IMG/VR virus record: IMGVR_UViG_3300013286_000010
Coordinates: 1 to 64,000 of that record
From: a virus
Direction: 5' to 3' (one strand)
Length of the DNA: 64,000 nucleotides
In this document: positions 3,647 to 44,837 of the stretch, piece by piece
Layout of the letters: each line of letters opens with the position of its first letter
How positions within the stretch are numbered: position 1 is the first letter of the stretch
Notes under the pieces: model-generated
Seen by the model: the letters and a program-made list of their open reading frames with translations, nothing else
The model's database searches: none
Told to the model about the DNA's origin: nothing
Program-made: the position numbers and the translations under genes

Positions 3647-4017
3647 TGCGAGCTAAAGATTTTGTTAACGAAGTTAGAGGTGATGGTAAGATGCATCCTC
3701 ATATGGACAACGCTAACCAAGGCGCTGTTCGTATGCGTGATATCGGTGGATACGATCGTACCTATCACCTAAACCGTATTTGGATGGCCGCTGCAATGGC
3801 TGATGGTAAGAGTGCAAAAGCTGTTGATATGGATAGTGCCAGTTTTGTCGAAAAGTATAATGTGGCATTTCCTTACACTGATGCAGAACACTTGATGATA
3901 TTGGCTGCTATGGCCACTATTCCAACTGATAGCCAAGAATTAACCAAACGTGGTAAAAGTAAAGAACCGGATGATACTTATACAGTAAGTCCCGTAGCAA
4001 ATTGGATGAAGAAATGA
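3646..4017 (+). CDS. hypothetical protein with putative capsid-targeting leader
   Basis: TAATG coupling; N-terminus MRAKDFVNE. Confidence 0.75.
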   Translation: MRAKDFVNEVRGDGKMHPHMDNANQGAVRMRDIGGYDRTYHLNRIWMAAAMADGKSAKAVDMDSASFVEKYNVAFPYTDAEHLMILAAMATIPTDSQELTKRGKSKEPDDTYTVSPVANWMKK

Positions 4018-6125
4018 ACAACGAATTTAAAAAAGTAAAATCAAATGGCGAAACACGATTCGTGTTAGAATTCTCCGACGGTGGATCAACAAGTGCAGGC
4101 AGTATAGCTAGCGTAGAAAAACCACTAGGTGAACTACAGCGTAGAGCTGAACCGCCAAAACCTCGCAACTTCGTTGCCAAGAATGCCAAGATGGGCGGGG
4201 CTGGTCAGCACAAGGATAAGAAGAAGGCTGATAAGCAGGGTGATGTTAAACATCGTAAACCATTTGCTGAAGGCGATGTTGTTCCACTAGGTAAAAAGCA
4301 TCGTGGAGATTTAGAGGATACACGCTCATGCCCCAAGTGCGGTGGCGACTTACAAGGTGGAACATACATGGGACACCGAGTAAAAGTGTGCCATCCTTGT
4401 TCACAAGTTTATCTACCACCTAACAGCGGTATTGACCAAAAGGGTAATAAAATAGGCGAGCAAGGTGTGGCGGAAGGCTCTGAACAATATGATGAAATTA
4501 GTGACAAAGCATTCGATGAAGGATATGCTGGGTATTCTTATCGCAACATTTATCCCAAAGGCACTAGAGAATATGAGGAATATCACGAAGGGTGGTACGA
4601 CGGTCGCTTGGCTTTTGAAAAAGCAAACGACTACGAAAGCGACTTTTATATTTCAAGACCGGAGCAAGGTGTGGCGGAAGGTGAAAAGACTATGAGTCGC
4701 GCTGCCAAAGGTAATGAGAAATATGGCAAGGACGGCATGAAGGCACTAGCCAAGGCAGGTCGTGAAGGTGCTAGCGATGAGAAGCTAGATAAGATTCGAG
4801 ACAAGTATGACAACTATAATGAAGAAGCCAAACACGGTCTCTACTACAATGTAAACAAACGCAAGGCTGCTGGAACCAGTAGACCCGCATCAAGTCCCAA
4901 AGCACCCACAGCACAGGCGTGGAAGGATGCAGCCAAAACTGCTAAAAAAGAAAGTATAGCAGAGAGTGAAGGACGTTGTATGCAGTGCGGTATGAAAGAC
5001 TGCAAGTGTCCAGGTACCAGTTGCAAATGCAAACCTATTGCAGGTTGGGTACCGGGCAAAGGTTTCAAGAAAGCCACGGACGAAGCTGCCAATGCCGCAC
5101 AACAAGCTGCCATTGCAATTGCCAAAAAGAAAAAGCAAGGTGTAGAAGAAGAGTGGAGCAAGAAATACAAATCTAGTATCAACTGTAGTCATCCAAAAGG
5201 ATTCAGTCAAAAGGCTCACTGTGCCGGTAAGAAGAAGCACAATGAAAGTATGATGACAATGGAAGCGGTGTGCCCAGATTGCGGCATGTGCCAAACACAC
5301 GGCAATATTAGCGAGATTAAAAAAGGTGCTAAAGATTCAAATGGAGTTAGCAGTTGCTGGTCAGGCTATCATGCGGCTGGTACTAAAAAAGGCCGTAATG
5401 GTGGACAGGTTCGCAACTGTGTGCCCAACGAAGGTATAGCAGAAAATCCAGACTGGTACAATGACGAGGCAAATAGTATGTCTAGTAGTCAACTAAAAAG
5501 TCTATATAAACATGCAATGAAATTACGCCAAGCAGTTAAACGAATGCAGGCACAGGGTGATACATTAGAACCATGGCAACAGAGCAAAGTTACCAAAGCT
5601 GCTGATTATTTAGATGCTGTGTTCAATGCGGTGGACGACGAGCATGATATGGGCGAGCAGACTGAATTAGAAAGTGTAGGTATTCCATCATACGGCGTGG
5701 GCGGTTATCGCAATCGTGGCGATGATGAAAGACACGATCTAGATGATCCAGAACTACAACGTAATCGTCAAGAAGTCACATATTACAACATCACAATCGA
5801 CGGCAAACCTATTAATCCTGAACCAATCTTTGGTCGTAGTGCTACAATTGCATGGGGTAAGAAACATGCTGCCACTGGCGTGGATCTTTCCAACGCTATG
5901 ATATCTCCAGTTAAGTATACCGAAGATGCCTATATGGAATCACTGCAAAATATGTTAGAGCGTTCTGTGAGTCAAGCACAACATAACCTAATGGTAGGTG
6001 TTGCACACAATCCAGCATTTGCCCAAAAGGTAAAAGTTAAACGAGCTGTTGGACAAGAGTTTGCCAATGCAGATCAAGGTCACGACATTAGCAAACTACC
6101 AATCCGTGTTCCAAAAAAGAAATGA
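4014..6125 (+). CDS. multi-module putative polyprotein (head internal/cargo protein)
   Basis: Start probably ATG 4014 (ATGA overlap); about 13 short modules separated by E-ending linkers (EQGVAE x2, QGVEE, ESIAE, EGIAE, KPFAE). Confidence 0.75.
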   Translation: MNNEFKKVKSNGETRFVLEFSDGGSTSAGSIASVEKPLGELQRRAEPPKPRNFVAKNAKMGGAGQHKDKKKADKQGDVKHRKPFAEGDVVPLGKKHRGDLEDTRSCPKCGGDLQGGTYMGHRVKVCHPCSQVYLPPNSGIDQKGNKIGEQGVAEGSEQYDEISDKAFDEGYAGYSYRNIYPKGTREYEEYHEGWYDGRLAFEKANDYESDFYISRPEQGVAEGEKTMSRAAKGNEKYGKDGMKALAKAGREGASDEKLDKIRDKYDNYNEEAKHGLYYNVNKRKAAGTSRPASSPKAPTAQAWKDAAKTAKKESIAESEGRCMQCGMKDCKCPGTSCKCKPIAGWVPGKGFKKATDEAANAAQQAAIAIAKKKKQGVEEEWSKKYKSSINCSHPKGFSQKAHCAGKKKHNESMMTMEAVCPDCGMCQTHGNISEIKKGAKDSNGVSSCWSGYHAAGTKKGRNGGQVRNCVPNEGIAENPDWYNDEANSMSSSQLKSLYKHAMKLRQAVKRMQAQGDTLEPWQQSKVTKAADYLDAVFNAVDDEHDMGEQTELESVGIPSYGVGGYRNRGDDERHDLDDPELQRNRQEVTYYNITIDGKPINPEPIFGRSATIAWGKKHAATGVDLSNAMISPVKYTEDAYMESLQNMLERSVSQAQHNLMVGVAHNPAFAQKVKVKRAVGQEFANADQGHDISKLPIRVPKKK
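4458..4681 (+). repeat. 20-nt perfect direct repeat GAGCAAGGTGTGGCGGAAGG (4458-4477 and 4662-4681) encoding EQGVAEG
   Basis: Identical copies 204 nt apart; degenerate copy AGCAAGGTGTAGAAGAAG at 5134-5151. Confidence 0.9.
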
Positions 6126-6913
6126 AAATAAACGATTTATTAGAGTCAGACGACTACGAAATACATAACCAAGAAAAACTAGATCGAATATTGGTCAAGT
6201 TATGTGAGATGGTCATTGAAGCACAACAAGAAGATAGTGAATACTATGGTATGGTTGCTGCCGGTGTCCTCGATCCTGATAATAATTTAGCAGCTGGAGT
6301 AAATTATCCTCATGAAGAAGGCGGTCGTGTCCATGCAGAAAGAGCCGCAATGGAATTATATGAAAGCCAATATGGATCACCGGTTCCCAAAGGCAGCATC
6401 ATTATTACAACATTAAGTCCGTGTAATGAACACGCAGATCGAACAGCAGATAAGCGCCATGGCGAAAGTTGCACTGAACTAGTCAACAATTCTACTGTGC
6501 ATAAAGTATACTGCGGATACATGGATCCTAGTCAAGGTGACGACGAGCACGATGAGAGAACATTCACTTTAGAAGAAACTCGCAACCCTGCTATACGCGA
6601 GCTTTGCAAAAAGTTTGCAGATACATTCCTAGATGGTCATGTGTCTGAATCAGCAGCTTGGCATCGCAAGGCAGGCAAAAGTAAAACAGGTGGACTAAAC
6701 GATAAAGGCATTGCCAGCTATCGTAGAGAGCATCCCGGAAGTCACTTACAAAAAGCTGTAACTACTAAACCTAGTAAATTAAAACCCGGAAGTAAAGCTG
6801 CCAAACGCCGTAAATCATTCTGTGCTAGAATGGGCGGCAGTAAAGGTCCAATGAAAAAACCCAACGGTGAACCAACCCGTAAAGCCCTAGCATTGCGTAA
6901 GTGGAACTGTTAA
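6122..6913 (+). CDS. Zn-dependent cytidine-deaminase-like domain fused to a basic DUF6321-like domain
   Basis: HAE and SPC..C motifs; C-terminal AW.RK.GK...GGLN..G.ASY...RRKSFCARM...ALRKWNC; leader MKINDLLE; junction HVSE/SAAW. Confidence 0.75.
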   Translation: MKINDLLESDDYEIHNQEKLDRILVKLCEMVIEAQQEDSEYYGMVAAGVLDPDNNLAAGVNYPHEEGGRVHAERAAMELYESQYGSPVPKGSIIITTLSPCNEHADRTADKRHGESCTELVNNSTVHKVYCGYMDPSQGDDEHDERTFTLEETRNPAIRELCKKFADTFLDGHVSESAAWHRKAGKSKTGGLNDKGIASYRREHPGSHLQKAVTTKPSKLKPGSKAAKRRKSFCARMGGSKGPMKKPNGEPTRKALALRKWNC

Positions 6914-7806: not shown

Positions 7807-8274
7807 ATGGCAAAATACGAAACAAAACAGCATAGAAAAATCTACGAACAATATCATGGCATAAAAATTCCAAAAGGAATGGAGATACATCATATAGATG
7901 GAACCCATGCTAATAATGATATTAATAATCTTAAATTAGTTACATGGCAAGAACATTACGATATTCATTATTCGCAAGGTGATTGGGCCGCTTGTTTATT
8001 AATTTCTGGAAGACATTCTATACCTCCGGAAGAAAGAAGCAGATTAGCATCATTAGCCGCTACTAAAGCAAATAAAGAAGGTAAGTGTGGATTTAAATTA
8101 GGACACGCATCTGCTGCCGGAAAAATAGGCGGAAAAAAGGGAGGTAACTATGCTAAAGAAAATCGCACAGGTATTTTTGCTTTAAGTCCTGAAAAAAATA
8201 AAGAAAGGCATCTCAATTCTGTTATATCAAAATTAATAAAAAATGGTAAGATGTGTGCTTGGCCACAACAATAA
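7807..8274 (+). CDS. HNH endonuclease (free-standing homing-endonuclease-like)
   Basis: EIHHIDG.H.NN...NL..V...EH motif. Confidence 0.85.
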   Translation: MAKYETKQHRKIYEQYHGIKIPKGMEIHHIDGTHANNDINNLKLVTWQEHYDIHYSQGDWAACLLISGRHSIPPEERSRLASLAATKANKEGKCGFKLGHASAAGKIGGKKGGNYAKENRTGIFALSPEKNKERHLNSVISKLIKNGKMCAWPQQ

Positions 8275-31943: not shown

Positions 31944-34900
31944 TTAAAATCCTTCAGTTAATGGTTTATTGTTATCATCTAACAAGGGAGATCCGTCATT
32001 ATCAGTTAATGTAATATCTCCTCCGTAGTAGTACTTATCAGGTAATTCAGCTGTTTTCTCTTGTAAGAATTTAGCAGGCAATGTTGTGCTATCTATAATT
32101 GATAAAGTTCTTCTAGAATTATTAGGATCAACGTCATTCCATTCTGCAGATTTATCAAATTCTTTTTTAACAACTGCTAACTTAATCCGATCACCGACAC
32201 CGCCTGTAATATTTAATATTAATTGTTGTGTATTCGATATAGTAAATTCGGGAGGTAAGTATTGTAGTCCTCGGTATACATATCCTTTAAACGAATCAGG
32301 TTCGATAGAATCTGTGTAGACCCAGACTTGATTTGTTGATGTTACTGTATATGCCTTGCCAATTTCTGTGGTATACGGCAATCCCGCAACAGTAGATGTT
32401 GTTCCAATTTTAATACCTTTGGTGTCCGGACTGTCATATGTGATAGTAGTATCGTGTATATAGGTTCCAGATTTTCTTAATAATCTACCACCATAAAATA
32501 CCTGTACCTGATCTTCAGGATTGACGATACTATTCAATATTATACCGTCGCTAATTAATACCTCATTGGTGCCAGTAACTGTTAATTTTTGTGTAACAGT
32601 ATTGATACTATATGTCGATACTCCATTACTTGTATAATGAACTTGTGTTTTAATTGTTTCTGTAAAAGGAATAGTTTGATTAACACTTTGGTCTATTACT
32701 TTAGTACCTGGAGCAGAATAACGACTAGGAGCTGTACCTAATGTACCTCTTCTTAATTGACTCAATACAGTCTTACTTGCCTTCATAAATTCAATACGTT
32801 CACCGTCAATAATAACAACGCCGGGTATTTTTTTACTTAACATAGGTTGTGTAAGAACAGTAGCATCAGCCACATGAATTTCAGTATCTTTATAAGACAA
32901 TGGGCTGGTTAGATAAGTTGTATTTTCTTTAGATAAACGTTTAAATGAAGTTCTATTAAACATATCATTGAAAATTCTATAACCTAGCAGAGTAGTAGCC
33001 AACCGTTGATCAACCATACTCCTAATAACAATGGAGTCAGTTGATAGAATTGAATATGCATCACTAATTTGAATTGTTAATTGATCGTCCAATACATCAA
33101 AATCTAATCCGCTAGTTAGAGGTGTTCCGTTCAATTGTACCCATACATAATTTATATTAGTTACAGGGCGAGTAACTTTAAATCTTCTATTTGGATTACC
33201 ATCAAATCTTTCTGTTCTTATCATCATATCGTCATTATCGTTATATGTGAGAACTTTGATTTCTCCTGTAGAAGTACTAACACTTAATTGTAATTTAGGA
33301 ATTCCTGCGTTGTCATAATATATATCATAGTCATAATCTTTATCTCCACCAGTTGGTAGATCTACTATTGCAATTGCATCTCCGCTAACTAGTGCCACAC
33401 GTGATATATCAATTGTCAATAAATTATCAGACACTGTATAATCAAATCCAGGAGTTAGTTTATTTCCATTTCTATATGCCCTAACTGTTCCGTCGTATGT
33501 GTTAAATGTTCCTTGATTGTTGATTAAGAATACATTATTTGTAGACGATGTTACCTGATAGTAATCAATATGAGGAGGTGTCAATTGCTTACGAATCTTT
33601 GTATTAGGATTATAATACTCAACAATAGGAGCAGCAACAATTGGATCTATCTCATTTGATTTTATGTTTATACAGGTAGCAGTAAATGCAGAAGTATTCA
33701 ATGCAATAGTCTGTTCACTGATCTCGTTAAAATAATCGTATTGTGTACCAAAGAACCAAGCCTGTATAGTGCTTGTGGTCCCCGGAGTTAATCCGTAAAC
33801 ATTAACAGCAGCACGATCGTTTTCTATATTAGAAAATGTTAATTCAAAATAAGGTAATGCAGTTGTAATTGTAGTTATTGCAGATCCGTTAACAGTTACA
33901 TATGCGCTCTTGACAGAACTAGTTGATGCTAAACTAGAAACTTGAGCAATAGTTTCAAATCCAAAAATAGTAGAACTACCGGGCAAGTGTGTTGCAGAAG
34001 CAGAATCAATTATTCCATTCTCACGTCCAATATGACCGCCACCTATACTTATGATGGTATAACCTAGATACCCACTAACTGATTGAGGTCCAACTACAAT
34101 TTCATTGTGTTCCCAATCTATATAAAAGAATGGGCTATCAAGTTCAGTAGGAATAAAATCACTTACACTAAACATTTTACCATTAAAGGAAACTGTGATA
34201 TTGTTATTGCTTGGAGGTACTATACCTAATTTTCTGCGAGTAGTAACATTAGATATTATGTCTATTGAATGTGAAAATACAACAGGAGCTCCATAAAATG
34301 TTTTAGTATAGACATTTATTCCTACACTGTCAGATGCTTGTCCAGGTAAAAATTCTTCCGGAGCATGGCTAGTATCCGCTGTATAAAAGGCGTCGCCGTT
34401 AATAATAACTTCAGGAGAACTGCTATTTCCGTCTATTGCACTATCAAGTAAGTTAGAATTCTCTTCATATTTCCAGAATTCTATAACATAACCTTTTGGT
34501 ATTTCTGTGGTAGAAAAGTCACTAACTTCTATAGAACTCGAAAGTGCATAGACTGCACTAACTAATACATTTGTTATCTTAAATACCGTAGACGTGGTAC
34601 TGATAATATTAACATTTTGACCCGCTTCAATACCGGTAACTGAATCTAAAATAAATGTATTAGAACCAATAGTAGCCGTAGTGGTTACTACAGCCGTTGT
34701 ATAAAATCCAACATCGTCAGCATACGGGACAGTATCAAATGTATTTGTAGAGCCAGAACCGTATAAAAAATCCCATGCAGAATTTGTAAATGGCAATCCT
34801 TCAATTATTGTTTTAGGATAATTAATACCTGAAATTAATTGATCAAATTCTGGATTCTCTGGATCAAAACCGGGCATACCAGAAGCCGCTTTATAATAAT

Positions 34901-37900
34901 TTTGAATCCTCTCCGAAGCATTGAAAAGATTTATACTCTTTGTGTATATTACTTTTAATACTTGAGAGACTAATGGTACATAATTTAAAAATACCACTTT
35001 ACTAAACTTTTTTGTATATCCGTTGTACTGCGCTGTAAAATACTTAATTGTATAATCCGAACGTAGCACAACATTGCCATCTAGTGTAATAGTAATTTTA
35101 GATTTGTCTGCATCTGCTAACCAGTTTAAAGTAAACTCTTCAACCGATCCGTTACATACAAATTGATCAACTACAATATTATTTCCTATTTGATCAGTTG
35201 ACCCCACTCTATCAAATTTCATACCTATTTGATTAGTACGAACTTGTTTATTTGTTAAATGCGTGTAGGCAATTGCTACTACTCCAGTTGTTCCGCCTTG
35301 CAACTTAACAGTCGGTTGTCGATAAAAAGTGCTAGTAGTGTTATTAGTAATCTCAATTGAAATTACTTTTCCAGACTCTATATGAGCAATTGCTCTAAAA
35401 TCTTCAATTACTTGATAGTATTCGTTGAACACCAAAACCGTTGGAGCAGATGTATAATTAGTCCCAGGATGTGATACCGAAATATGATCAAGAGCAAAAC
35501 CTCTATTAAGCAAAAATGACTCTTGAGGTTTAGGAAGATTTAAACTTTTGATGTAATCAGTAGTAGCATCTACATCACCGACAGCAAAATTGTCTGTTTG
35601 ATAGTAATCAACCAAGTTGCCGTTTACCCAACGATACGGATTATCAAAATCAGTTGAAAAAGTATTTGTAGGTTCTACCAATGTATGGTTAGATGTAAAG
35701 CTACGAACAATTGTATGATAGGGTTTTACTTCATCTAGATATTGTTCGTAGTAATCGCTACTAGAGATTTTGTAAACAGGTCGTTGATCTAATGCACCTG
35801 CATAATTTACTACGTTAATGAATGAAGTTTTAAATGCCCAGTCCAATAATTTCTGTTCAGACAATGCATACTTAACTGCCTTGAAGAAGAATAAATTCCA
35901 ATTAACTTTTAATTCATTAACAAAAATATCATCTCTCAATGCAATCAACATATATTGCAATTCAATATCTGGAGTTTGATCATACAATGTTTGATCATAA
36001 CTATTATTTTGATCAAACCCATAGCTGCTTAATGGCAGGTCCCAGATAGTATCTAATATTTGTATTGTGCCATTCTCATTGTAGACAATATTGTAATCAG
36101 TACTAAACGATCCAACAATACCCAAAGCAGTTTTTTCTAATATTATGTAATGACCCGATCCGCCATTTTTAATTTTAACATACTGGCCTGCTGACAATGT
36201 TAATTCGTTTATTTCATAAACATCATTGACTGTAGCTGTAAAATCCAAGAAAGGATTATAATCAGTACTGACCCAGTCTACATATTTCCAATATAGAGGA
36301 GTATTATATTGTTGAGTTGCTACTCGTGCCCAAGTTAATGTATCAAGGTCGTAAATAAATTTAGACCATCTGTTTTTAAATTGGGTATCAGCTAATACAA
36401 TAACAGTATAGGGTCTAACTTCTAATGTAGGCGCTTCTGTAAATCCGTTGCCAGCATTGACAACTTTGACAGATATAACCCTACCTTGATTGTCAATTTC
36501 TGTAGAAATTTCTGCATCAGATTTAACATCACTAATAATTTTAACTGTCGGAGATATCTTATATCCAAATCCCGGATTATCAATTATAACAGTTTGAATC
36601 TTACCGTTATCAATTACACATCTTAATTTAGGAATGGCAAATAATCTAGTGTCAATTATTAATAAACCTTCATTATCTTCAACTGTTTGATCGTACTCGT
36701 GGCTATTAATGTCAGAAACTAACTGCTGTTTATTTAGATTTGCAAAACTATAATTTCCAGTTATTCTATTTTTAAGTAGAACAGAATTTGTAAATTCCAC
36801 TAAATTTCTCAACGCTTCCAATCTATCTTTGAACAAAGTTTGTTGAGGTCTAATGCCAATTCCATATCGCGTTCTAGATGTTAGTGTTGGATTAGGAACA
36901 GGATTTCCTAACTTGTCATGTCCTAATAAACTATCAATTAATTTTTTCTCAAGCAATGCATTAGGTCTGCTGGTCGCAGAACCTTCTTGCAATAGCAACC
37001 ATTCAGTATGGCGGTTTGTACTTGATTCAGCAATATTTTTATTAGTAGAATCGATTGCGACATTTAAATGTATTCTATTACCGACTAATAAAGATCCAAT
37101 ATTAGCTAATGCAATTGCATTAGTATCAATAATTGCCGCATATTGAACTCCGTATGCAGTAGGATTATAGATCATAGATGCAACTTGATAGCTACTGGCT
37201 CTTCTATTTTTAACATCAGGAACTGTAGATTTATTCTTAACCCAGTAGTAATAACGAGTGCTGAATGAATTCGTTACAGAATTATAAACTTGTTTAGAAG
37301 ATATTACACTATCATCGGCAACTTTAGGTTGTCCGCTGATTCCTTCTGTTAGGCCCAAGGCAGTATCTGCCAGTTGACTCCACTCACTAGGAAGATAACT
37401 AGATCCAACCCACTCATATACATCGATACTAGCACCTGGGAATAATTTGCCCCAGTTATTCTTTCTATAAGTTAGGTCGCTTTGTTCATACCAAACATAT
37501 TTTGCAGTGCTCAAATCCCACCATAGCTCACCTACGTGGTCTTCTAACCAGTTTGTTTCGGAGTCAATAACGGTTGAAGTAGTTCCTGCAGAATAAACTG
37601 CTGGATCAAATGTTGTTCTATAGGTCAATTCTTGATCAGCAATGCCAACGATCTTTCCTTTTAGAGGATCAACAACATCAAGATAGTTGATAATTTCTTC
37701 AGTAAAAGAGTTAATCAAAGTCACACGTTGTATTGCATCAACCATGGTCAAGCTATCTTGTTCTCTTAAAATTTTAAAACCATTAGTAGATTTATCAATC
37801 TTATTAAACTGATAGAAGGCATTAACTGTATTTGAATTTTTTAAAGAAGGTGCACCTACTAGTATGCAATCATCAATTGTTACGCTAGTTCCGTAGAATG

Positions 37901-40900
37901 TGTCGTCATCAATAACAGTTGATTCTAAATCGTCTGCTAATACGAATCTTGTGTCTTTTCGGTTGTAAACATAGACTGTACCAGAATTTTTAATGGTACC
38001 ATAGAACATAGTCGAGTCAACATCAAATATTGATTCTGTGTTTGTAATATCAAACGTACTATATAGGTTCTTATTATTGCCAATTGCTGAAATAACTAAT
38101 GAATCATTAGATACAGTAATATCAATGTCCTTACCAAAATACATACCCGGACCAGGTGCAGGGTTTGTTAAAACAGACTGTAAAACAAATAGGCCGTTAG
38201 TAGCAGTATAGATTGCAACTTTACCATATGACAAATTGTCATTTTTAGAGTAAGGCGCCGATACAAACAAATATGCACCGTTCGGTGATACTAATAATTT
38301 TTCTCCAAACTGTCCATATTTTCCAAAAGGTGAAACTAAAGTCTGTGAGAATACTGCAGAAGTTCCTGTAAATATAGAAACTAATCCAGTGTTGGTAAAA
38401 TGTCCGGGTGCTCCGATAGCAAGTATGTTAGCATTATCAGATCCACTGATACTATATCCCCATTTACTTCCGATAGTAGTAACTGACGAAGTAGTAAGTT
38501 GTTTAACATATGCTACATTAATTGAATTAGTAGCAGTAGTGATCTGATAAGCATATACAGTTCCGGTGCCGGTGTTGTTTGTGCCCGGAGCTCCGACTAA
38601 CATTAATTTTGTATTGATGTTACGTTGAACGTAAATTGAATGTCCAAAGTGTTGATAACTAGAAGTAGATACCGGTACTGTTAAAACTGCCTGTGTATTT
38701 TCCTCAAGTATTTGGGGATTGATACTACTAATTTTTATTAGACCCTGTTCTACATAATTAGAATAATTTGATCCTGTAGTGGATACATAGCTAGCCAACG
38801 GGGCACTAGCAAAGATTAAACCATAGGTTGTTGTACTAAAAGCAGTATCATCATAAACCACACAATGACCAAAATCTGTAATAGGTGCCCGCTCAACATC
38901 GTAATAATGCAGTGTTCCATCATTTAATGTATAATTTAATTGCCCGCGGAAATCATCTCCTGTCTTTTTATAAACAGAAACTTTACCTCGAATTGCAATG
39001 CTGGTTGCAGTATATGCAGGTGATCCAACAACAAATATATCGCTGCCTTTTCTCTTGCTGATGCTGCGTCCAAGTTGTTCGTTTTTATTTGTACCTGTAG
39101 AAATTACAGGAGTAAAGTTATTAATTTTCTGATAAACTTTCCATTTGTAGTTGTCATCATTGTCTACCCAGAATATAGTATTGTCTGAGAATTTTAATAG
39201 TTCGTCATCTGTAGGTAAATTATCATAAGACGATGTTCTTGCACTCTTAAATTTATACAACGGTATTGGGTCAACTCCTAACGAGGTTAACGAAATAGAA
39301 GGAGAAGCAACAGTGAATTCAGATACAGAAGGAGTTTTGATAACAGTGTATATTCCGTCAGCATCACTACTAAATTTAGATACTGATACAATATCTCCAA
39401 CTGACAAACCGTGGAATAAATTTGTTTTAAATGTAATTTCTCCAGAGTAAGTAACTACATCTACTCCAATAATATCTGCATCTACCCTAGAGTAACGATA
39501 TACATCCCAGTCGCTATTTTTTTTAAATCCCATCCATACAGTGTCACCTTCTTTAATAGTGCCATTGTTTGCAAGATTTAACAAACTAGATTCGTTGTAT
39601 GCGGTTGCAGTTACATCATCAATTCTTACATAACCTGCTGTAATTAATTCAAATTCAAAATCAGTATCTGTTTCTACAGGAAACGTTGTCAACGGATTAT
39701 AGTCCGTAGGAACTATAATTTGATCAGTTACTGCACTGTAGTAGATTAAATCATTAGGTGCAGAAGGTGCAGAATTGACAAAGTTAACAACTTGCGGATT
39801 TTCAATGAACTTACCTTCTGTTAACGGAACTTCTAATTCTTGATAAGTTTCATATGCTCCATAATATCCAATACGGAACGCCCACTCTTCTGAATATCCC
39901 AACTGCCCTTGCAAGTTATGAATACTAGCCTTAGCAAGTTTTGTAATAGCATTACGGGTTCCTTTTTCTTTGATAAATCCTTGATAGAATTTATATTGAG
40001 CAATAGGATTAGTGAAGATATTGTTTAGATAAACACGAGGTGTATATCCAATTAAGTGCTGTGCCATTTTTTGTTGGCCACTATCAAAGTTATCAATATC
40101 TAAACTATAGAAATCTTCAAATTGATTAATCTTGTAATCAAAGTTTGGTAACAATCCAGCAACAGGTTTGTTACCTAGTAAGGTCCACAAATTAAAATCA
40201 AATTTTGCAGAACCAGTAATATTTTTATTAGCAGAATAATATTGACTATTGAATCGAACTACATCACCTGATTGATAATCAGTATATTGCAACCAATCGT
40301 TTATTTGAGCACTGTCATAAACAAACCCAGGACTAAAATAATCACCATTCCAATTTGCAGTACGGAATCCCGTTAACTTCATTCTGCGTTGACGGTATCC
40401 AGTTTCGATATCATAGATAGTATCGTTGAAAATTGTAGTGTTATTAAACACCATTGCATGTTCTTTTTGTACAGAATATATTGTAGCAAAATAGATACCG
40501 TCTGTAGAGTTTGATGTTTTAATTGTGCAAACTCCGTTGTCTCTAGTTACAGAAAGATTTTGTCTAGGAAACGATGTGCCGTTTGCCGACAACAAACTGT
40601 AATCGTAAAAACTATCAAACACACTATCAACAACTGTATTAGCTAATGAATATTTTATTTGATTTGCAAAAGGACTTACGGTGATTATACTGTTGTTAGA
40701 CCAATTCTGACTAGTCCAATATAAAAATTCTTTAGAGGAGAAGTTCCAATCGATAGTTGTTGCAAAATCTGAATTATATTCATCAAATATAAAACCTTGG
40801 GCTTCTAACCATTTTCCGTAACCAACGATTATATCATATACTTCTTGTATAGTAGAAAATTCTGTCTTATAAGGAATCTGTTTAACTTCTGTTTCAAAAC

Positions 40901-43900
40901 TACTCGCTAGCTGAACCGTCGTTCCACCTATGATAGGCAAAGTAGGAATTGATTGAAAGTATACTAGATTAAATGTTGTTCCGCTTTGATGACTAGTTTT
41001 TACTCTGTAATAATTATTATTATAAGAAACTAGTTGACCTGCTTGATAAAATGTTCCTGTAGGTGCAGAATTAGCAGATGTTGTATCTGCCGACGAAAGT
41101 CCAGTTGCTCCAGAAGACGAACCGCTAGTCCATGTTACATATGATTCAGAAACTCCACCAACTGTTATTGTAGGCGTATTAGAATTTCTAACTGGCATGT
41201 ATATATCAAAATAAGGATTACTAGAATCGTAACCTTGGATAGAATATTTGTCATTTATCTTCTGTACAACTAGACCAGAAATGCTTACTTTCTTTACAGG
41301 ATTACTAGTGTTTAAAATTAAATTATAATTTTCTTGAGGCAGTAACGCACCTGGACTAGTGCTATTTGGTTCGTATGCATCAATGACAATTTGTAGTTTA
41401 TCTTTGCTAACAAACCCGCCAACTTTATAGAATAAATTAAAATCAATATAAGATAAATCTTGTTTTAATTGATCAATATAATTTGTAGATCGTTGTTGAC
41501 CCACTTCGGAAACATAAACACTATACCCACTAGTTTGTGTTTTATCAACATCATCGTGAATTTTAACTGCGGTAATATTTAAAAATTCTCCAGCAGTTCC
41601 ATATGTCCATTGTCCGGCGGCATTTTTAATTACTCTGCTAGTATCGTACATCGATGATGCATAGACAGCAGGTTTAGTTAATGCTAATAATTTTTGTACA
41701 ACAAACGGCCAATAGCTACTACGTCGCCACGATGTTTCAGCAGGACCCTGATCACCAAATTTCCAAGGCTGACGCGTGTTATAATCAGTAACGTCAGTTA
41801 CTAAATGTGCAGGGGGCGGTAATAAATGACCAAAGCGGTCAACTGGAATTATTCCTAATAAACCAGGACGAGCATAAACGCTATTGGTAGTGTTATTGTG
41901 ACGATTGTATCCGTTTGATAAATCAGTCCATAGTTTAGTATTTGTAGATAAGTAAGGAGCATTACCATATTCTGCAACCCACCATGATGGCCTTTCAGCA
42001 AATCCTAACATTTCCCAAGGATGAGTATGAGGTTTGTCAGTATCATAAAAATATTTAGATACGCCTCTCCAATATCCCGGAACATACGTTGAGTGAGCTG
42101 CATTATAGCTACCTGTATAATTCCAAGTAAATTCAGCAGTGTTAATACCATCATATAAAATGCCGCTGTCTTCAAACACAGTATTAGTAGTATAATCTAT
42201 GCCGTAGAATCCAGCCCATTTAATGAAGTCACTTTGTAGAATAGAATTAATTTCGTCTACAGAGTAATCAGTAGTTCTAAATGCTCCGGGCATTACACTG
42301 TTAACATCTAATAATTCTGATCTGTATTCTGTTTTGATGTTATTGTAAACACGTTTTTCAAATTCAAGAATAATAGCATCTCTATAATCATTGTAGGCTA
42401 CCATTAAGCTACCATCATGACCTTGAATAACATTTACAGGAGTAAGATATGTGTTATCTTCAAATATGCTAGGAGCAAATCTTGGGAATAATCCCAACTT
42501 AGTAGGAGTAGAAGGTACAAAAGATCCTTCAGTACTAAAGTAATCATCAACAACTAATACATCACCCTTTGTTAAAGATTTTAAAATTCTAACAGATGAA
42601 TCATTAGTTACAAACTCGTAGTCGTGATCACGTAGTAATTGTCCTCCATTTAAGTAAACAATAATAGAACGTAGGCTTAACGTAGAAAGACTAAAGTCAC
42701 TAGTAATAGGATATACAGTATTACGAGAATCTGTTACTGTCCATGTTCTAGTAGTTTTATCAGTTCCGTAGGCAATCATGTCTGATAGATAGTACGGAGA
42801 CAATAAATCTTTATCTACATTTAATTCTTTTAATGCTCTGTCAAGGCTTCCTATTGGATTAGTTTGTGTATCAATTTCAGAAATCTTCTTTAAAAATAAC
42901 AACTTGAATTGATTATATTGATCAGCAGATTTTGTTAGTGCATCGATAACACTGTGTTCTTTCTTACCAATAAAAAAGTTTGCAAATGCTAACGGATTAG
43001 CATTAGAAATTAATCTAGTGCCATAACTAGCAACACCAAAAACATCTCTTAAATTTAAAACGCCAGAATAGTCTCCGTGAAGATGACGATACCTGGTTAA
43101 CGCTGTTTGTAAATGATCACTCAATTCACTTAAGGTTAAAGATGCGATTGGACCATTTAATGGATTGTTAGTTAACGACAATGGCAATTCATAATAGCTA
43201 GAAGTAGCTCCATGAATAATAGGAATCGGATATGGTTTAGAAGTTGCCCAAACATTGCCATATGTACTATTGTTTATAAATTTGAAATAAGTGTCAGCAG
43301 TCGGTACCGTTGTAATATTCTGATTTGTTTCAGAAATATCAAATGTACCGTCCATGAAATAGTTTTTAAACAGATAACTGCCTAGCCCTGCACTATTTTT
43401 ATATTTTAGCGGGAATCCCAATACTGAATCATTTGCACCTGTGCCTATGTCATAACTGAATAATTTGTTCCCTGTAAAATTAGTCAAATAATGTGCAGTA
43501 TCACTATAACTATTTCCGTTACTGTCAAACAAATCAAATAATGGTGCCTGATTTAATGTGGGATGTTGTTGTGCATATTGCCACTTACTGCTATCAAACC
43601 ACCAATTTGTTCCAGCATACTGGTTGCCTGTGTTTATGCTAACATTAACTTTGTCCGATACATTGATAATATTAACTAGCTCTATTCTCGGATACCCACC
43701 AACGGTTACAAAGTTAACTTGAAAAATTTTGTTACGTACTGTTGCATCAGTGTCGGCATTAAAGATAATAGTATTTCCTTGCTCCAGTAAAGTTCCATCA
43801 ACATAATATCCTGCAGAACCTTCTACTTTATTAAATGCGTCTAAAGTAACTGTATCAATAAAATCGATGTTAGAAATTCCAATTTCTCCAAAATTAAATA

Positions 43901-44837
43901 ATTTTAGATTTGCATTAAATTCAACAATAGGACGCTGTGCTCTTTTATTTGCAGGATATAATGGAATTTGATTATTAACTTCCGAACTTATTTTAATTAC
44001 ATCACCGTGTATCCATCTATTGTATTTTGACCAAGGGTTAACATCTTGACTAGCACGGTTGATAGTTATATATTCAGGAGTAATAGGCAATGTTTTAAAA
44101 TTATCAAACGGATAATCATCAAATGCATTAGCATCAAAGTTATCATTAAAGACAGTTTTTATACTCTGAGAGCCCGACAATAAATCATAACTGACTAATT
44201 TAATACTACCTCCTACACCTTCTACAAAATATTCTTTTTCATAATACGACGAAGGAGTAACATTTCCCCTAAAACGTAACTTCATTCCATTTGATAAAGG
44301 CAATTCAGACGCATATGAGACAACTGTACCTATGGTCAGTGTATAATTTGTTTGACCTACTATGGCTTTTTCTAAATTGCCAATAGAAGTTGCATCAACT
44401 ACAATAGTTTCTGGACCAGTTACTAACCAATAATATTCTTGATAATTTATAAGTTTGTCCCAATCAACTTGGGGATCAAAAGAATACACCTCTGATCTAA
44501 ACATCCTATCAAAGTTATCATTTTTTCCGCCTTTTGTAGAGATTTCATTTGTTAAATCATCAATACCTATTACATCGTTAACTGTACTAGAATTATCTTT
44601 AACTACCAATGCGGGCTCTAACTGATAATCTCTACGCAAAGGCAACGATTCAGTAATATAAACATCTGTTAAAGAATTGTATGTTGCAGTTTGTGTGGAT
44701 CCAATGTATCCGTCAATTCGTTCTAACTGGGGAGGCTGTATTAATTGGTCAATAGTACTGGATAAGAATTTTGCGTTCTTATCCGTTCTAAATATTTCAG
44801 GTAGTAGATTGATAGACTTGATAACTTTATTTGCCAT
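31944..44837 (-). CDS. giant (4297 aa) virion structural protein, probable baseplate wedge/fibre scaffold
   Basis: Uninterrupted ORF directly after gp6-like gene; FG-GAP-like propeller repeats (FG....V.AP), I.N.G.GY...P.V repeats, VKPYHT motif. Confidence 0.75.
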   Translation of the reverse strand: MANKVIKSINLLPEIFRTDKNAKFLSSTIDQLIQPPQLERIDGYIGSTQTATYNSLTDVYITESLPLRRDYQLEPALVVKDNSSTVNDVIGIDDLTNEISTKGGKNDNFDRMFRSEVYSFDPQVDWDKLINYQEYYWLVTGPETIVVDATSIGNLEKAIVGQTNYTLTIGTVVSYASELPLSNGMKLRFRGNVTPSSYYEKEYFVEGVGGSIKLVSYDLLSGSQSIKTVFNDNFDANAFDDYPFDNFKTLPITPEYITINRASQDVNPWSKYNRWIHGDVIKISSEVNNQIPLYPANKRAQRPIVEFNANLKLFNFGEIGISNIDFIDTVTLDAFNKVEGSAGYYVDGTLLEQGNTIIFNADTDATVRNKIFQVNFVTVGGYPRIELVNIINVSDKVNVSINTGNQYAGTNWWFDSSKWQYAQQHPTLNQAPLFDLFDSNGNSYSDTAHYLTNFTGNKLFSYDIGTGANDSVLGFPLKYKNSAGLGSYLFKNYFMDGTFDISETNQNITTVPTADTYFKFINNSTYGNVWATSKPYPIPIIHGATSSYYELPLSLTNNPLNGPIASLTLSELSDHLQTALTRYRHLHGDYSGVLNLRDVFGVASYGTRLISNANPLAFANFFIGKKEHSVIDALTKSADQYNQFKLLFLKKISEIDTQTNPIGSLDRALKELNVDKDLLSPYYLSDMIAYGTDKTTRTWTVTDSRNTVYPITSDFSLSTLSLRSIIVYLNGGQLLRDHDYEFVTNDSSVRILKSLTKGDVLVVDDYFSTEGSFVPSTPTKLGLFPRFAPSIFEDNTYLTPVNVIQGHDGSLMVAYNDYRDAIILEFEKRVYNNIKTEYRSELLDVNSVMPGAFRTTDYSVDEINSILQSDFIKWAGFYGIDYTTNTVFEDSGILYDGINTAEFTWNYTGSYNAAHSTYVPGYWRGVSKYFYDTDKPHTHPWEMLGFAERPSWWVAEYGNAPYLSTNTKLWTDLSNGYNRHNNTTNSVYARPGLLGIIPVDRFGHLLPPPAHLVTDVTDYNTRQPWKFGDQGPAETSWRRSSYWPFVVQKLLALTKPAVYASSMYDTSRVIKNAAGQWTYGTAGEFLNITAVKIHDDVDKTQTSGYSVYVSEVGQQRSTNYIDQLKQDLSYIDFNLFYKVGGFVSKDKLQIVIDAYEPNSTSPGALLPQENYNLILNTSNPVKKVSISGLVVQKINDKYSIQGYDSSNPYFDIYMPVRNSNTPTITVGGVSESYVTWTSGSSSGATGLSSADTTSANSAPTGTFYQAGQLVSYNNNYYRVKTSHQSGTTFNLVYFQSIPTLPIIGGTTVQLASSFETEVKQIPYKTEFSTIQEVYDIIVGYGKWLEAQGFIFDEYNSDFATTIDWNFSSKEFLYWTSQNWSNNSIITVSPFANQIKYSLANTVVDSVFDSFYDYSLLSANGTSFPRQNLSVTRDNGVCTIKTSNSTDGIYFATIYSVQKEHAMVFNNTTIFNDTIYDIETGYRQRRMKLTGFRTANWNGDYFSPGFVYDSAQINDWLQYTDYQSGDVVRFNSQYYSANKNITGSAKFDFNLWTLLGNKPVAGLLPNFDYKINQFEDFYSLDIDNFDSGQQKMAQHLIGYTPRVYLNNIFTNPIAQYKFYQGFIKEKGTRNAITKLAKASIHNLQGQLGYSEEWAFRIGYYGAYETYQELEVPLTEGKFIENPQVVNFVNSAPSAPNDLIYYSAVTDQIIVPTDYNPLTTFPVETDTDFEFELITAGYVRIDDVTATAYNESSLLNLANNGTIKEGDTVWMGFKKNSDWDVYRYSRVDADIIGVDVVTYSGEITFKTNLFHGLSVGDIVSVSKFSSDADGIYTVIKTPSVSEFTVASPSISLTSLGVDPIPLYKFKSARTSSYDNLPTDDELLKFSDNTIFWVDNDDNYKWKVYQKINNFTPVISTGTNKNEQLGRSISKRKGSDIFVVGSPAYTATSIAIRGKVSVYKKTGDDFRGQLNYTLNDGTLHYYDVERAPITDFGHCVVYDDTAFSTTTYGLIFASAPLASYVSTTGSNYSNYVEQGLIKISSINPQILEENTQAVLTVPVSTSSYQHFGHSIYVQRNINTKLMLVGAPGTNNTGTGTVYAYQITTATNSINVAYVKQLTTSSVTTIGSKWGYSISGSDNANILAIGAPGHFTNTGLVSIFTGTSAVFSQTLVSPFGKYGQFGEKLLVSPNGAYLFVSAPYSKNDNLSYGKVAIYTATNGLFVLQSVLTNPAPGPGMYFGKDIDITVSNDSLVISAIGNNKNLYSTFDITNTESIFDVDSTMFYGTIKNSGTVYVYNRKDTRFVLADDLESTVIDDDTFYGTSVTIDDCILVGAPSLKNSNTVNAFYQFNKIDKSTNGFKILREQDSLTMVDAIQRVTLINSFTEEIINYLDVVDPLKGKIVGIADQELTYRTTFDPAVYSAGTTSTVIDSETNWLEDHVGELWWDLSTAKYVWYEQSDLTYRKNNWGKLFPGASIDVYEWVGSSYLPSEWSQLADTALGLTEGISGQPKVADDSVISSKQVYNSVTNSFSTRYYYWVKNKSTVPDVKNRRASSYQVASMIYNPTAYGVQYAAIIDTNAIALANIGSLLVGNRIHLNVAIDSTNKNIAESSTNRHTEWLLLQEGSATSRPNALLEKKLIDSLLGHDKLGNPVPNPTLTSRTRYGIGIRPQQTLFKDRLEALRNLVEFTNSVLLKNRITGNYSFANLNKQQLVSDINSHEYDQTVEDNEGLLIIDTRLFAIPKLRCVIDNGKIQTVIIDNPGFGYKISPTVKIISDVKSDAEISTEIDNQGRVISVKVVNAGNGFTEAPTLEVRPYTVIVLADTQFKNRWSKFIYDLDTLTWARVATQQYNTPLYWKYVDWVSTDYNPFLDFTATVNDVYEINELTLSAGQYVKIKNGGSGHYIILEKTALGIVGSFSTDYNIVYNENGTIQILDTIWDLPLSSYGFDQNNSYDQTLYDQTPDIELQYMLIALRDDIFVNELKVNWNLFFFKAVKYALSEQKLLDWAFKTSFINVVNYAGALDQRPVYKISSSDYYEQYLDEVKPYHTIVRSFTSNHTLVEPTNTFSTDFDNPYRWVNGNLVDYYQTDNFAVGDVDATTDYIKSLNLPKPQESFLLNRGFALDHISVSHPGTNYTSAPTVLVFNEYYQVIEDFRAIAHIESGKVISIEITNNTTSTFYRQPTVKLQGGTTGVVAIAYTHLTNKQVRTNQIGMKFDRVGSTDQIGNNIVVDQFVCNGSVEEFTLNWLADADKSKITITLDGNVVLRSDYTIKYFTAQYNGYTKKFSKVVFLNYVPLVSQVLKVIYTKSINLFNASERIQNYYKAASGMPGFDPENPEFDQLISGINYPKTIIEGLPFTNSAWDFLYGSGSTNTFDTVPYADDVGFYTTAVVTTTATIGSNTFILDSVTGIEAGQNVNIISTTSTVFKITNVLVSAVYALSSSIEVSDFSTTEIPKGYVIEFWKYEENSNLLDSAIDGNSSSPEVIINGDAFYTADTSHAPEEFLPGQASDSVGINVYTKTFYGAPVVFSHSIDIISNVTTRRKLGIVPPSNNNITVSFNGKMFSVSDFIPTELDSPFFYIDWEHNEIVVGPQSVSGYLGYTIISIGGGHIGRENGIIDSASATHLPGSSTIFGFETIAQVSSLASTSSVKSAYVTVNGSAITTITTALPYFELTFSNIENDRAAVNVYGLTPGTTSTIQAWFFGTQYDYFNEISEQTIALNTSAFTATCINIKSNEIDPIVAAPIVEYYNPNTKIRKQLTPPHIDYYQVTSSTNNVFLINNQGTFNTYDGTVRAYRNGNKLTPGFDYTVSDNLLTIDISRVALVSGDAIAIVDLPTGGDKDYDYDIYYDNAGIPKLQLSVSTSTGEIKVLTYNDNDDMMIRTERFDGNPNRRFKVTRPVTNINYVWVQLNGTPLTSGLDFDVLDDQLTIQISDAYSILSTDSIVIRSMVDQRLATTLLGYRIFNDMFNRTSFKRLSKENTTYLTSPLSYKDTEIHVADATVLTQPMLSKKIPGVVIIDGERIEFMKASKTVLSQLRRGTLGTAPSRYSAPGTKVIDQSVNQTIPFTETIKTQVHYTSNGVSTYSINTVTQKLTVTGTNEVLISDGIILNSIVNPEDQVQVFYGGRLLRKSGTYIHDTTITYDSPDTKGIKIGTTSTVAGLPYTTEIGKAYTVTSTNQVWVYTDSIEPDSFKGYVYRGLQYLPPEFTISNTQQLILNITGGVGDRIKLAVVKKEFDKSAEWNDVDPNNSRRTLSIIDSTTLPAKFLQEKTAELPDKYYYGGDITLTDNDGSPLLDDNNKPLTEGF

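Follow-up and report, generated by a model that had tools for sequence, protein, structure and literature searches.

We analysed the first 64,000 nucleotides (nt) of an 83-kb IMG/VR virus record (IMGVR_UViG_3300013286_000010), hereafter the window, which derives from an uncultured, giant freshwater phage of the T4 type, and within it the modular gene P0001, whose small protein modules are joined by a short linker that is repeated at the DNA level. The preliminary description of this DNA had claimed a perfect 20-nt repeat bracketing an in-frame cassette of 204 nt, and this is what the window contains: GAGCAAGGTGTGGCGGAAGG occurs exactly at 4458-4477 and 4662-4681, in one frame, with no further exact copy in the window or the 83-kb record and no further copy with up to 3 mismatches in the window. 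The number of matches expected by shuffling was 0.01, and two matches were found in none of 100 shuffles. The bases flanking the two copies differ, so that the repeat is exactly 20 nt long; the copies are spaced by 204 nt (68 codons), and both translate as EQGVAEG in the frame of the open reading frame (ORF) at 4014-6125. The claimed use of GTG and GCG against the codon preference was confirmed in the 24 long ORFs of the window, where GTG accounts for 10% of Val codons, GCG for 7.3% of Ala codons, and third codon positions have a GC content of 28%. Given the codon usage of the window, the chance of the observed codon string for EQGVAE is 3.6 × 10−4, and the chance that two independent EQGVAE peptides have the same codons is 0.0105. 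Among the degenerate copies proposed earlier, the one at 5133-5152 (KQGVEE, 15/20 identical to the repeat) is a clear DNA relative, whereas those at 4947 (KESIAE, 11/20) and 5427 (NEGIAE, 12/20) have mainly the amino-acid pattern in common with the repeat.

The linker DNA is constant at silent sites over non-orthologous positions and divergent phages. We searched IMG/VR with a degenerate pattern that allowed any codons for EQGVAEG, which left synonymous choice unbiased, and obtained at least 120 stretches; all loci collected contain 270 QGVAE linkers in 150 distinct ORFs. Of these linkers, 185 (69%) read exactly CAAGGTGTGGCGGAA, compared to about 0.4% expected for this 15-mer from codon usage. 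The share of GTG among Val codons is 87% in the linkers vs. 18% in the background of the same ORFs, and that of GCG among Ala codons is 88% vs. 9%. The consensus, GAGCAAGGTGTGGCGGAAGGC, spans about 21 bp and is conserved from −6 to +14 around GGT, with about 0.1 bit just outside. The codon before the linker core ends in G in 65% of linkers (GAG, AAG, CAG), despite the preference of these genomes for A-ending codons, and EGVAE linkers use the same codons as QGVAE linkers. As a control, conserved peptide motifs within modules show the usual variation in synonymous codons. Codon identity at sites with the same amino acid, determined in 21 matched ORFs, was 0.957 for linkers, which were compared at non-orthologous positions, vs. 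0.605 for a 30-amino-acid block of the highly conserved module K. The linker codons are thus not randomised among relatives, the point on which a check of synonymous-codon conservation had been proposed.

In about 190 loci, all 276 distinct-context occurrences of the 12-mer core (276/276) encode GVAE within an open frame, and none was found in other frames or in non-coding DNA. Variant linkers differ from the consensus by one base: DVAE is encoded by GAT GTG GCG GAA and GMAE by GGT ATG GCG GAA, and 13 of the 18 GVEE linkers use the rare codon GAG, one base from GCG. Resembling single-base mutants of the consensus, the variants indicate that the linkers are copies of one DNA element and not convergent peptides. 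By comparison, GCG occurs in 0 of 11 KP[FLVY]AE junctions and in 4 of 29 [ST][IV]AE junctions of the same proteins; since these other Glu-ending junctions use ordinary Ala codons, a protease-site peptide alone is insufficient to explain the fixed DNA.

In the sequences compared, cassette R, the unit between the two repeats, has different neighbours in different proteins, and one close relative is without it. Its 68 residues (4476-4679) recur with 97-99% identity in P0030, P0035 and P0121, each time in another context. The unit is preceded by ...DEQGVSE and followed by VAGAQKCWPGY... in P0030, and preceded by ...RKLKGVAE and followed by GSENNNITAQ... in P0035, the neighbours in both cases being unlike those in the window. 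In P0003, which reads ...NKIGEQGVAEGERTMSRAAKG, precisely these 68 residues are missing and a single linker is left; the identity of P0003 to P0001 is 92% in the best local alignment, which covers 39% of the query, and 80% in a multiple alignment. We also placed Logan contigs (k = 31) from four lake runs of three studies on positions 3900-6300. Cassette R forms its own short contig that ends inside both linkers (4462-4681, 4461-4680 and 4477-4681). Its depth is 41 in run X1, the possible source sample of the window, where the flanks have depths of 26 and 23. The loose contig ends of this run, GATCGTAAGTTGA before 4462 and CTCGGAGAACAATAAT... after 4681, translate as DRKLKGVAEG and GSENNNITAQ, which is the P0035 context, so that two genes of one lake sample share 220 nt without a mismatch. 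At other joints, the end of module K or D directly precedes the linker that leads to cassette R or module M. The adjacency of module Z, linker and cassette R was found again, at 94% identity, in an independent lake run of 2025 (record 12). No exact skip of the 204 nt was found in the contigs of the four runs, which is uninformative because these contigs are unable to show absence; a degenerate pattern for the cassette-less junction had no match over viral contigs, and no junction of Z, linker and M was found among the collected loci.

Homology between relatives breaks inside the linker in the wider family as well. We compared 212 linker-bearing ORFs pairwise and considered matches of at least 93% identity over at least 120 nt. 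Linker windows make up 5.5% of the positions in this comparison; of the 205 internal match ends, 124 (60%) fall on a linker in each of the two ORFs, and a further 43 do so in just one of them. There are 19 matches, in 11 cassette groups (144-621 nt, 95-100% identical), that have linkers at either end in both ORFs and unrelated flanks on both sides, for example, the match of 199 nt at 100% identity between L040 and L153. Identity at such borders extends past the GVAE codons by 0-8 nt upstream and 0-5 nt downstream, leaving about 12-21 nt shared for a crossover.

The arrangement of the modules varies widely among relatives. More than 2,186 homologues of P0001 were found in metagenomes, each matching parts of P0001 only. 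The nearest eleven consist of a conserved N-terminal module followed by small unrelated modules of varying number and order, separated by (E/K/Q)QGVAE(G/E/A), and a C-terminal module that is one of two alternatives. When the ten modules of P0001 (Table 1) were mapped onto 120 relatives to obtain their architectures, K, W, M, D, C, R, Z and Y were found in many orders (such as KW, W..K, MK and DCMK), so that module order is not fixed; a fixed order was the finding that the preliminary description had named as speaking against a cassette array. Matches between the P0001 gene and related loci in blastn start or stop at 4478, 4666, ~4825, 4966, 5130-5148, 5432-5450, 5656 and 5951. Presence or absence of modules with breakpoints in the repeat, a check proposed earlier, and swaps with such breakpoints are thus borne out by the 124 of 205 match ends, by P0003 and by the 19 cassettes, and the proposal of a recombination handle in the linker codons, giving an in-frame cassette array, is well supported by codons, order and breakpoints. 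P0001 belongs to no Pfam family; blastn of its gene against cultured phages gave no match, and tblastn of the protein gave matches to single modules only (from T4-like cyanophages and a single Stenotrophomonas phage). In Synechococcus phage Bellamy, a stand-alone gene of 51 amino acids (gene 122; L192:1483-1638) corresponds to the first half of module K, which also matches annotated hypothetical proteins of other marine T4-like cyanophages; the lake phages thus concatenate what can elsewhere be a separate small gene. Other linker-bearing ORFs (L049, L141, L081, L134 and L138) reach up to 1,849 amino acids, and their enzyme-like domains (GNAT, ParB_N, NT5C, DUF5661 and DUF6321) are connected by the same linker, again fixed at the DNA level. 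More than one linker-bearing ORF is present in 27 loci.

Table 1. P0001, its modules and its two exact linker repeats; positions are those of the window, and a slash within a peptide marks a border or candidate cut
Feature	Position	Strand	Remarks
'Beads-on-a-string' modular gene P0001, 703 amino acids	4014-6125	+	Single open frame; about ten modules, N-Z-R-M-D-C-K-W-Y-E
Module N, conserved N-terminal; leader ends FVLE, module ends KPFAE/G	4014-4271	+	First in 98/120 relatives
Module Z, CxxC...CxxC, zinc-ribbon-like	4272-4475	+	Weak Pfam zinc-ribbon matches; blastn matches stop at 4478 in four loci
Left linker repeat, EQGVAE/G	4458-4477	+	Joins Zn-ribbon module (Z) to cassette R
Cassette R, 68-codon unit (unique part and trailing linker), Tyr/Glu-rich	4476-4679	+	97-99% identical copies elsewhere
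Right linker repeat, EQGVAE/G	4662-4681	+	Joins cassette R to module M
Module M	4680-4826	+	Homology blocks begin at 4666/4683
Module D, ends ESIAE/S	4827-4964	+	Homology blocks begin at 4819-4827 and stop at 4965/4966
Module C, Cys-rich, ends in decayed linker KQGVEE (5133-5152)	4965-5150	+	15/20 to repeat
Module K (WSKKYKSSINC...NCVPNEGIAE)	5151-5444	+	Commonest module, 99/120 relatives
Modules W (5445-5657), Y and E (C-terminal, from ~5949)	5445-6122	+	Homology blocks 5442-5656 and 5951-6123

We consider it probable that the linker is a frame-keeping crossover point of about 21 bp at which modules are exchanged by short homology, and that it possibly serves also as a cut site of the head protease. 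Because all linker copies are in one reading frame, a crossover would insert, delete or swap a whole module and leave the frame intact. Exchange would most likely proceed by homology and not by a site-specific recombinase, through the general short-homology recombination of the phage; T4-type recombination is viewed as efficient and promiscuous (PMC3157838). Each gain of a cassette would copy linker DNA, and only near-consensus linkers would keep recombining, which would account for the constancy at silent sites as birth-and-death turnover, or concerted evolution, of a multi-copy junction. The hydrophobic-Ala-Glu/Gly peptide could in addition be cut by the gp21-type prohead protease, in which case the product of the gene would be a set of small proteins delivered as head cargo. 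Some observations weigh against this account: the contigs show only that several junctions coexist, and the comparison with the cassette-less P0003 is at the protein level only. Further, 12-21 bp is short for efficient homologous recombination, so that a helper enzyme, or some other selection acting on the DNA or RNA, may be involved, and identical linkers are nearly as frequent between ORFs (51%) as within an ORF (60%), a uniformity that fits direct purifying selection as well as turnover.

The same uniformity of the consensus within and between ORFs would also fit an account in which the fixed nucleotides are a DNA or RNA signal in their own right, with exchange being secondary or enzyme-driven. 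Such a signal could be bound or cut by a sequence-specific nuclease or recombinase, or could make translation pause between two modules. The sharply bounded motif of about 21 nt with its highly conserved core has the size of a homing-endonuclease or recombinase site, an HNH endonuclease gene is located at 7807-8274, and GTG, GCG and GAG are rare codons. We nevertheless regard such a signal as unlikely, given that the 12-mer core never leaves the GVAE frame in the 276 occurrences, that CAA, GGT and GAA are the commonest codons, so that the pattern of the linker is not simply one of rare codons, and that a nuclease target is normally selected to vary. The linker had no Rfam match at E ≤ 1, folding of the linker junctions showed no structure beyond shuffles (z = −0.32 and 0.09), no slippery site and no stop soon after a frameshift in the linker was seen by eye, and the likeness to a Shine-Dalgarno sequence is weak. 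As to a recombinase, no tyrosine recombinase (PF00589) was found in the 83-kb record, which is a fragment (23% complete), whereas 14 of 14 control genomes match. A programmed exchange, with the linker as a selected signal for a phage-encoded sequence-specific enzyme and one word acting as recombination site, spacer and cut site, is in our judgement quite unlikely; if true, it would make cassette exchange a kind of 'exon shuffling' without introns that serves injected head cargo. Any tie between the HNH endonuclease and the linker is pure speculation.

A single recent insertion or duplication would likewise leave two copies with identical codons, and the amino-acid motif of the linker is conserved, as would be expected if the constraint lay on the peptide only, as a flexible spacer or a protease site. 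That the repeat is merely the footprint of such an event, with no continuing role, is, however, very unlikely, because the same codons are found in 69% of 270 linkers in 150 ORFs, because neighbouring conserved modules have diverged at silent sites, and because the other Glu-ending junctions rarely or never contain GCG (0/11 and 4/29). It is also very unlikely that the mosaics are metagenome mis-assemblies over shared cassettes. Near-identical cassettes of 150-600 nt in different genes could mislead assemblers, but the linker, at about 21 nt, does not reach the length of the k-mers used in assembly, the adjacency of Z, linker and R recurs at 94% identity in the independent run of 2025, the alternative left and right contexts of cassette R are both present as k = 31 contigs, and mosaic proteins come from many independent assemblies (JGI, ENA and Logan). 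If exchange by short homology at the linker is the correct explanation, these genes would show, in nature and on a large scale, how modules can be shuffled without loss of frame at a junction whose nucleotides are fixed; such shuffling has previously been documented for T-even adhesins and a small number of bacterial surface proteins. They would also provide a testable answer to the question of how sets of small accessory proteins, possibly injected ones, are put together and reshuffled by phages. In lake viromes, CAAGGTGTGGCGGAA can serve as a simple search word to find such genes and to split them into functional modules.

The closest parallel is with the 'recer' interdomain sequences of Gram-positive surface proteins (protein PAB/G/L), which de Chateau and Bjorck reportedly described in 1996 as module-border sequences, conserved at the nucleotide level, that encode a spacer peptide and were proposed to promote in-frame, intron-less shuffling. 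The phage junction, too, is conserved at the nucleotide level beyond the requirement of the peptide, is located at the borders of independently occurring modules, and is where whole-module differences break. By these two sequence-level class features, the linker appears to be of the recer type, and it may raise recombination frequency. Unlike recer in bacterial cell-wall proteins, the linker occurs in polyprotein-like phage genes, is unrelated in sequence, is present in hundreds of copies in many phages, and may double as a candidate protease site. In T-even tail-fibre adhesins, recombination at the glycine-rich motifs of gp38 and the motifs of gp37 swaps specificity segments (PMC3157838, citing Tetart et al. 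1996, 1998). Those glycine-rich motifs make up the structural core of a single domain, where they separate hypervariable loops, whereas the linker connects modules that are unrelated and occur independently, and its silent sites are fixed. PeSL promoter/stem-loop cassettes mediate modular gene shuffling in the hyperplastic regions of T4-type phages (PMC2839356, PMC4122927); they are likewise short, repeated, conserved DNA motifs of T4-type phages at which modules are inserted, deleted or replaced by recombination, but PeSLs are intergenic and regulatory and flank whole genes, whereas the linker is coding, in frame and intragenic.

The preliminary description had called the array integron-like, which holds as an analogy only. 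As in integron arrays, units are gained, lost and reordered at a repeated junction. Integron cassettes, however, are separate and usually promoterless genes, whereas the cassettes studied here are in-frame parts of one ORF of 703 amino acids. The linker is not palindromic, and no attC-type hairpin or inverted repeat was found at the junctions. Given these junctions, the lack of a separate ORF per cassette, and the lack of IntI, of any other tyrosine recombinase in the 83-kb record, and of attI or attC hairpin sites, we rejected membership in the integrons. Polyvalent proteins of phages and conjugative elements are multi-domain proteins believed to be packaged along with the DNA and delivered together with it (PMC5512222). 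Other linker-bearing ORFs, which carry GNAT, ParB_N, NT5C and DUF6321 domains, may resemble them; P0001 is without their hallmark enzymatic domains. The polyvalent-protein paper (PMC5512222) mentions neither a linker nor shuffling (0 occurrences of 'linker'), and a full-text literature search for 'QGVAEG' returned one unrelated fungal proteomics paper only and no paper describing the linker.

A number of features are consistent with head cargo that would be cut into pieces at the linkers. A gp21-type prohead protease (Peptidase_S77) is encoded at G000:C1:66967-67596 and matches PF03420 (E = 2.3 × 10−27) and phrog_207 (E = 8 × 10−59). Proteases of the gp21 family cut after Glu, and in T4 the head proteins start with a capsid-targeting propeptide that is 10-20 residues long (PMC5694885). 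The hydrophobic-x-Glu form is common to the linkers (VAE/G), the other junctions (FAE/G, IAE/S and IAE/N) and the leader of P0001 (FVLE/). This leader has RYVLE, RYILE and VYVLE as counterparts in relatives, its likeness to capsid-targeting leaders being one of resemblance only, and leaders like MKTLRDYINLIE are found at the start of many linker-bearing ORFs elsewhere. The major head protein (L193:4723-5904, corresponding to G000:C1:68723-69904) has a candidate maturation site, HLAE/SATAG, 41 residues from its start. This site has the same hydrophobic-Ala-Glu form as the linkers, and HLAE/S is the position at which T4 gp23 is cut. If the protease reading is correct, one short word means both 'swap here' and 'cut here'. 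The internal proteins of T4 (IPI-III and Alt) have a capsid-targeting sequence and are processed by gp21 after Glu (PMC5694885). P0001 is likewise encoded by a T4-type phage, which has an S77 protease, and contains a short leader ending in FVLE and many hydrophobic-x-Glu sites, but T4 internal proteins are single small proteins, whereas P0001 is a string of about ten modules and a candidate cargo. The protease gene is flanked by genes for an extremely acidic protein of 342 amino acids and a scaffold-like protein of 361 amino acids (L193:1925-2953 and L193:3613-4698), the latter with 28 hydrophobic-x-Glu sites.

The CheckV completeness of the 83-kb record is 23%, implying a genome of several hundred kb, and its GC content is 38%. 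It encodes a family-B DNA polymerase and a T4-type gene set that includes baseplate wedge proteins, a hub lysozyme and an SbcC-like (gp46-type) nuclease subunit; the genes for the portal, the head maturation protease and the major head protein are located shortly past the end of the window. All public runs that contain the stretch are freshwater or lake metagenomes, from several studies. The neighbours of P0001 (152-7776) encode a multi-domain nucleotidyl/cytidylyltransferase, a Dps/ferritin-like protein, a deaminase-DUF6321 fusion and an Fe/Mn superoxide dismutase, and this neighbourhood could be a block of head-cargo genes. The HNH endonuclease gene at 7807-8274 is free-standing and lies 1.7 kb downstream of the P0001 gene. 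On the minus strand, an ORF of 4,297 amino acids (31944-44837) adjoins the baseplate genes.

As a candidate function for cassette R, we considered ribosome modulation factor (RMF, PF04957) and found no support for it: cassette R has no Pfam match at E ≤ 1, phmmer against 1.8 billion proteins gave 6 matches, none of them RMF-sized, an alignment with the RMF-like part of P0107 is no better than with shuffles, and a word-index search and the Atlas give no support. The single-sequence AlphaFold model of cassette R has a pLDDT of 52. The protein P0122 (2,806 amino acids) contains six partial matches to the N-terminal part of cassette R.

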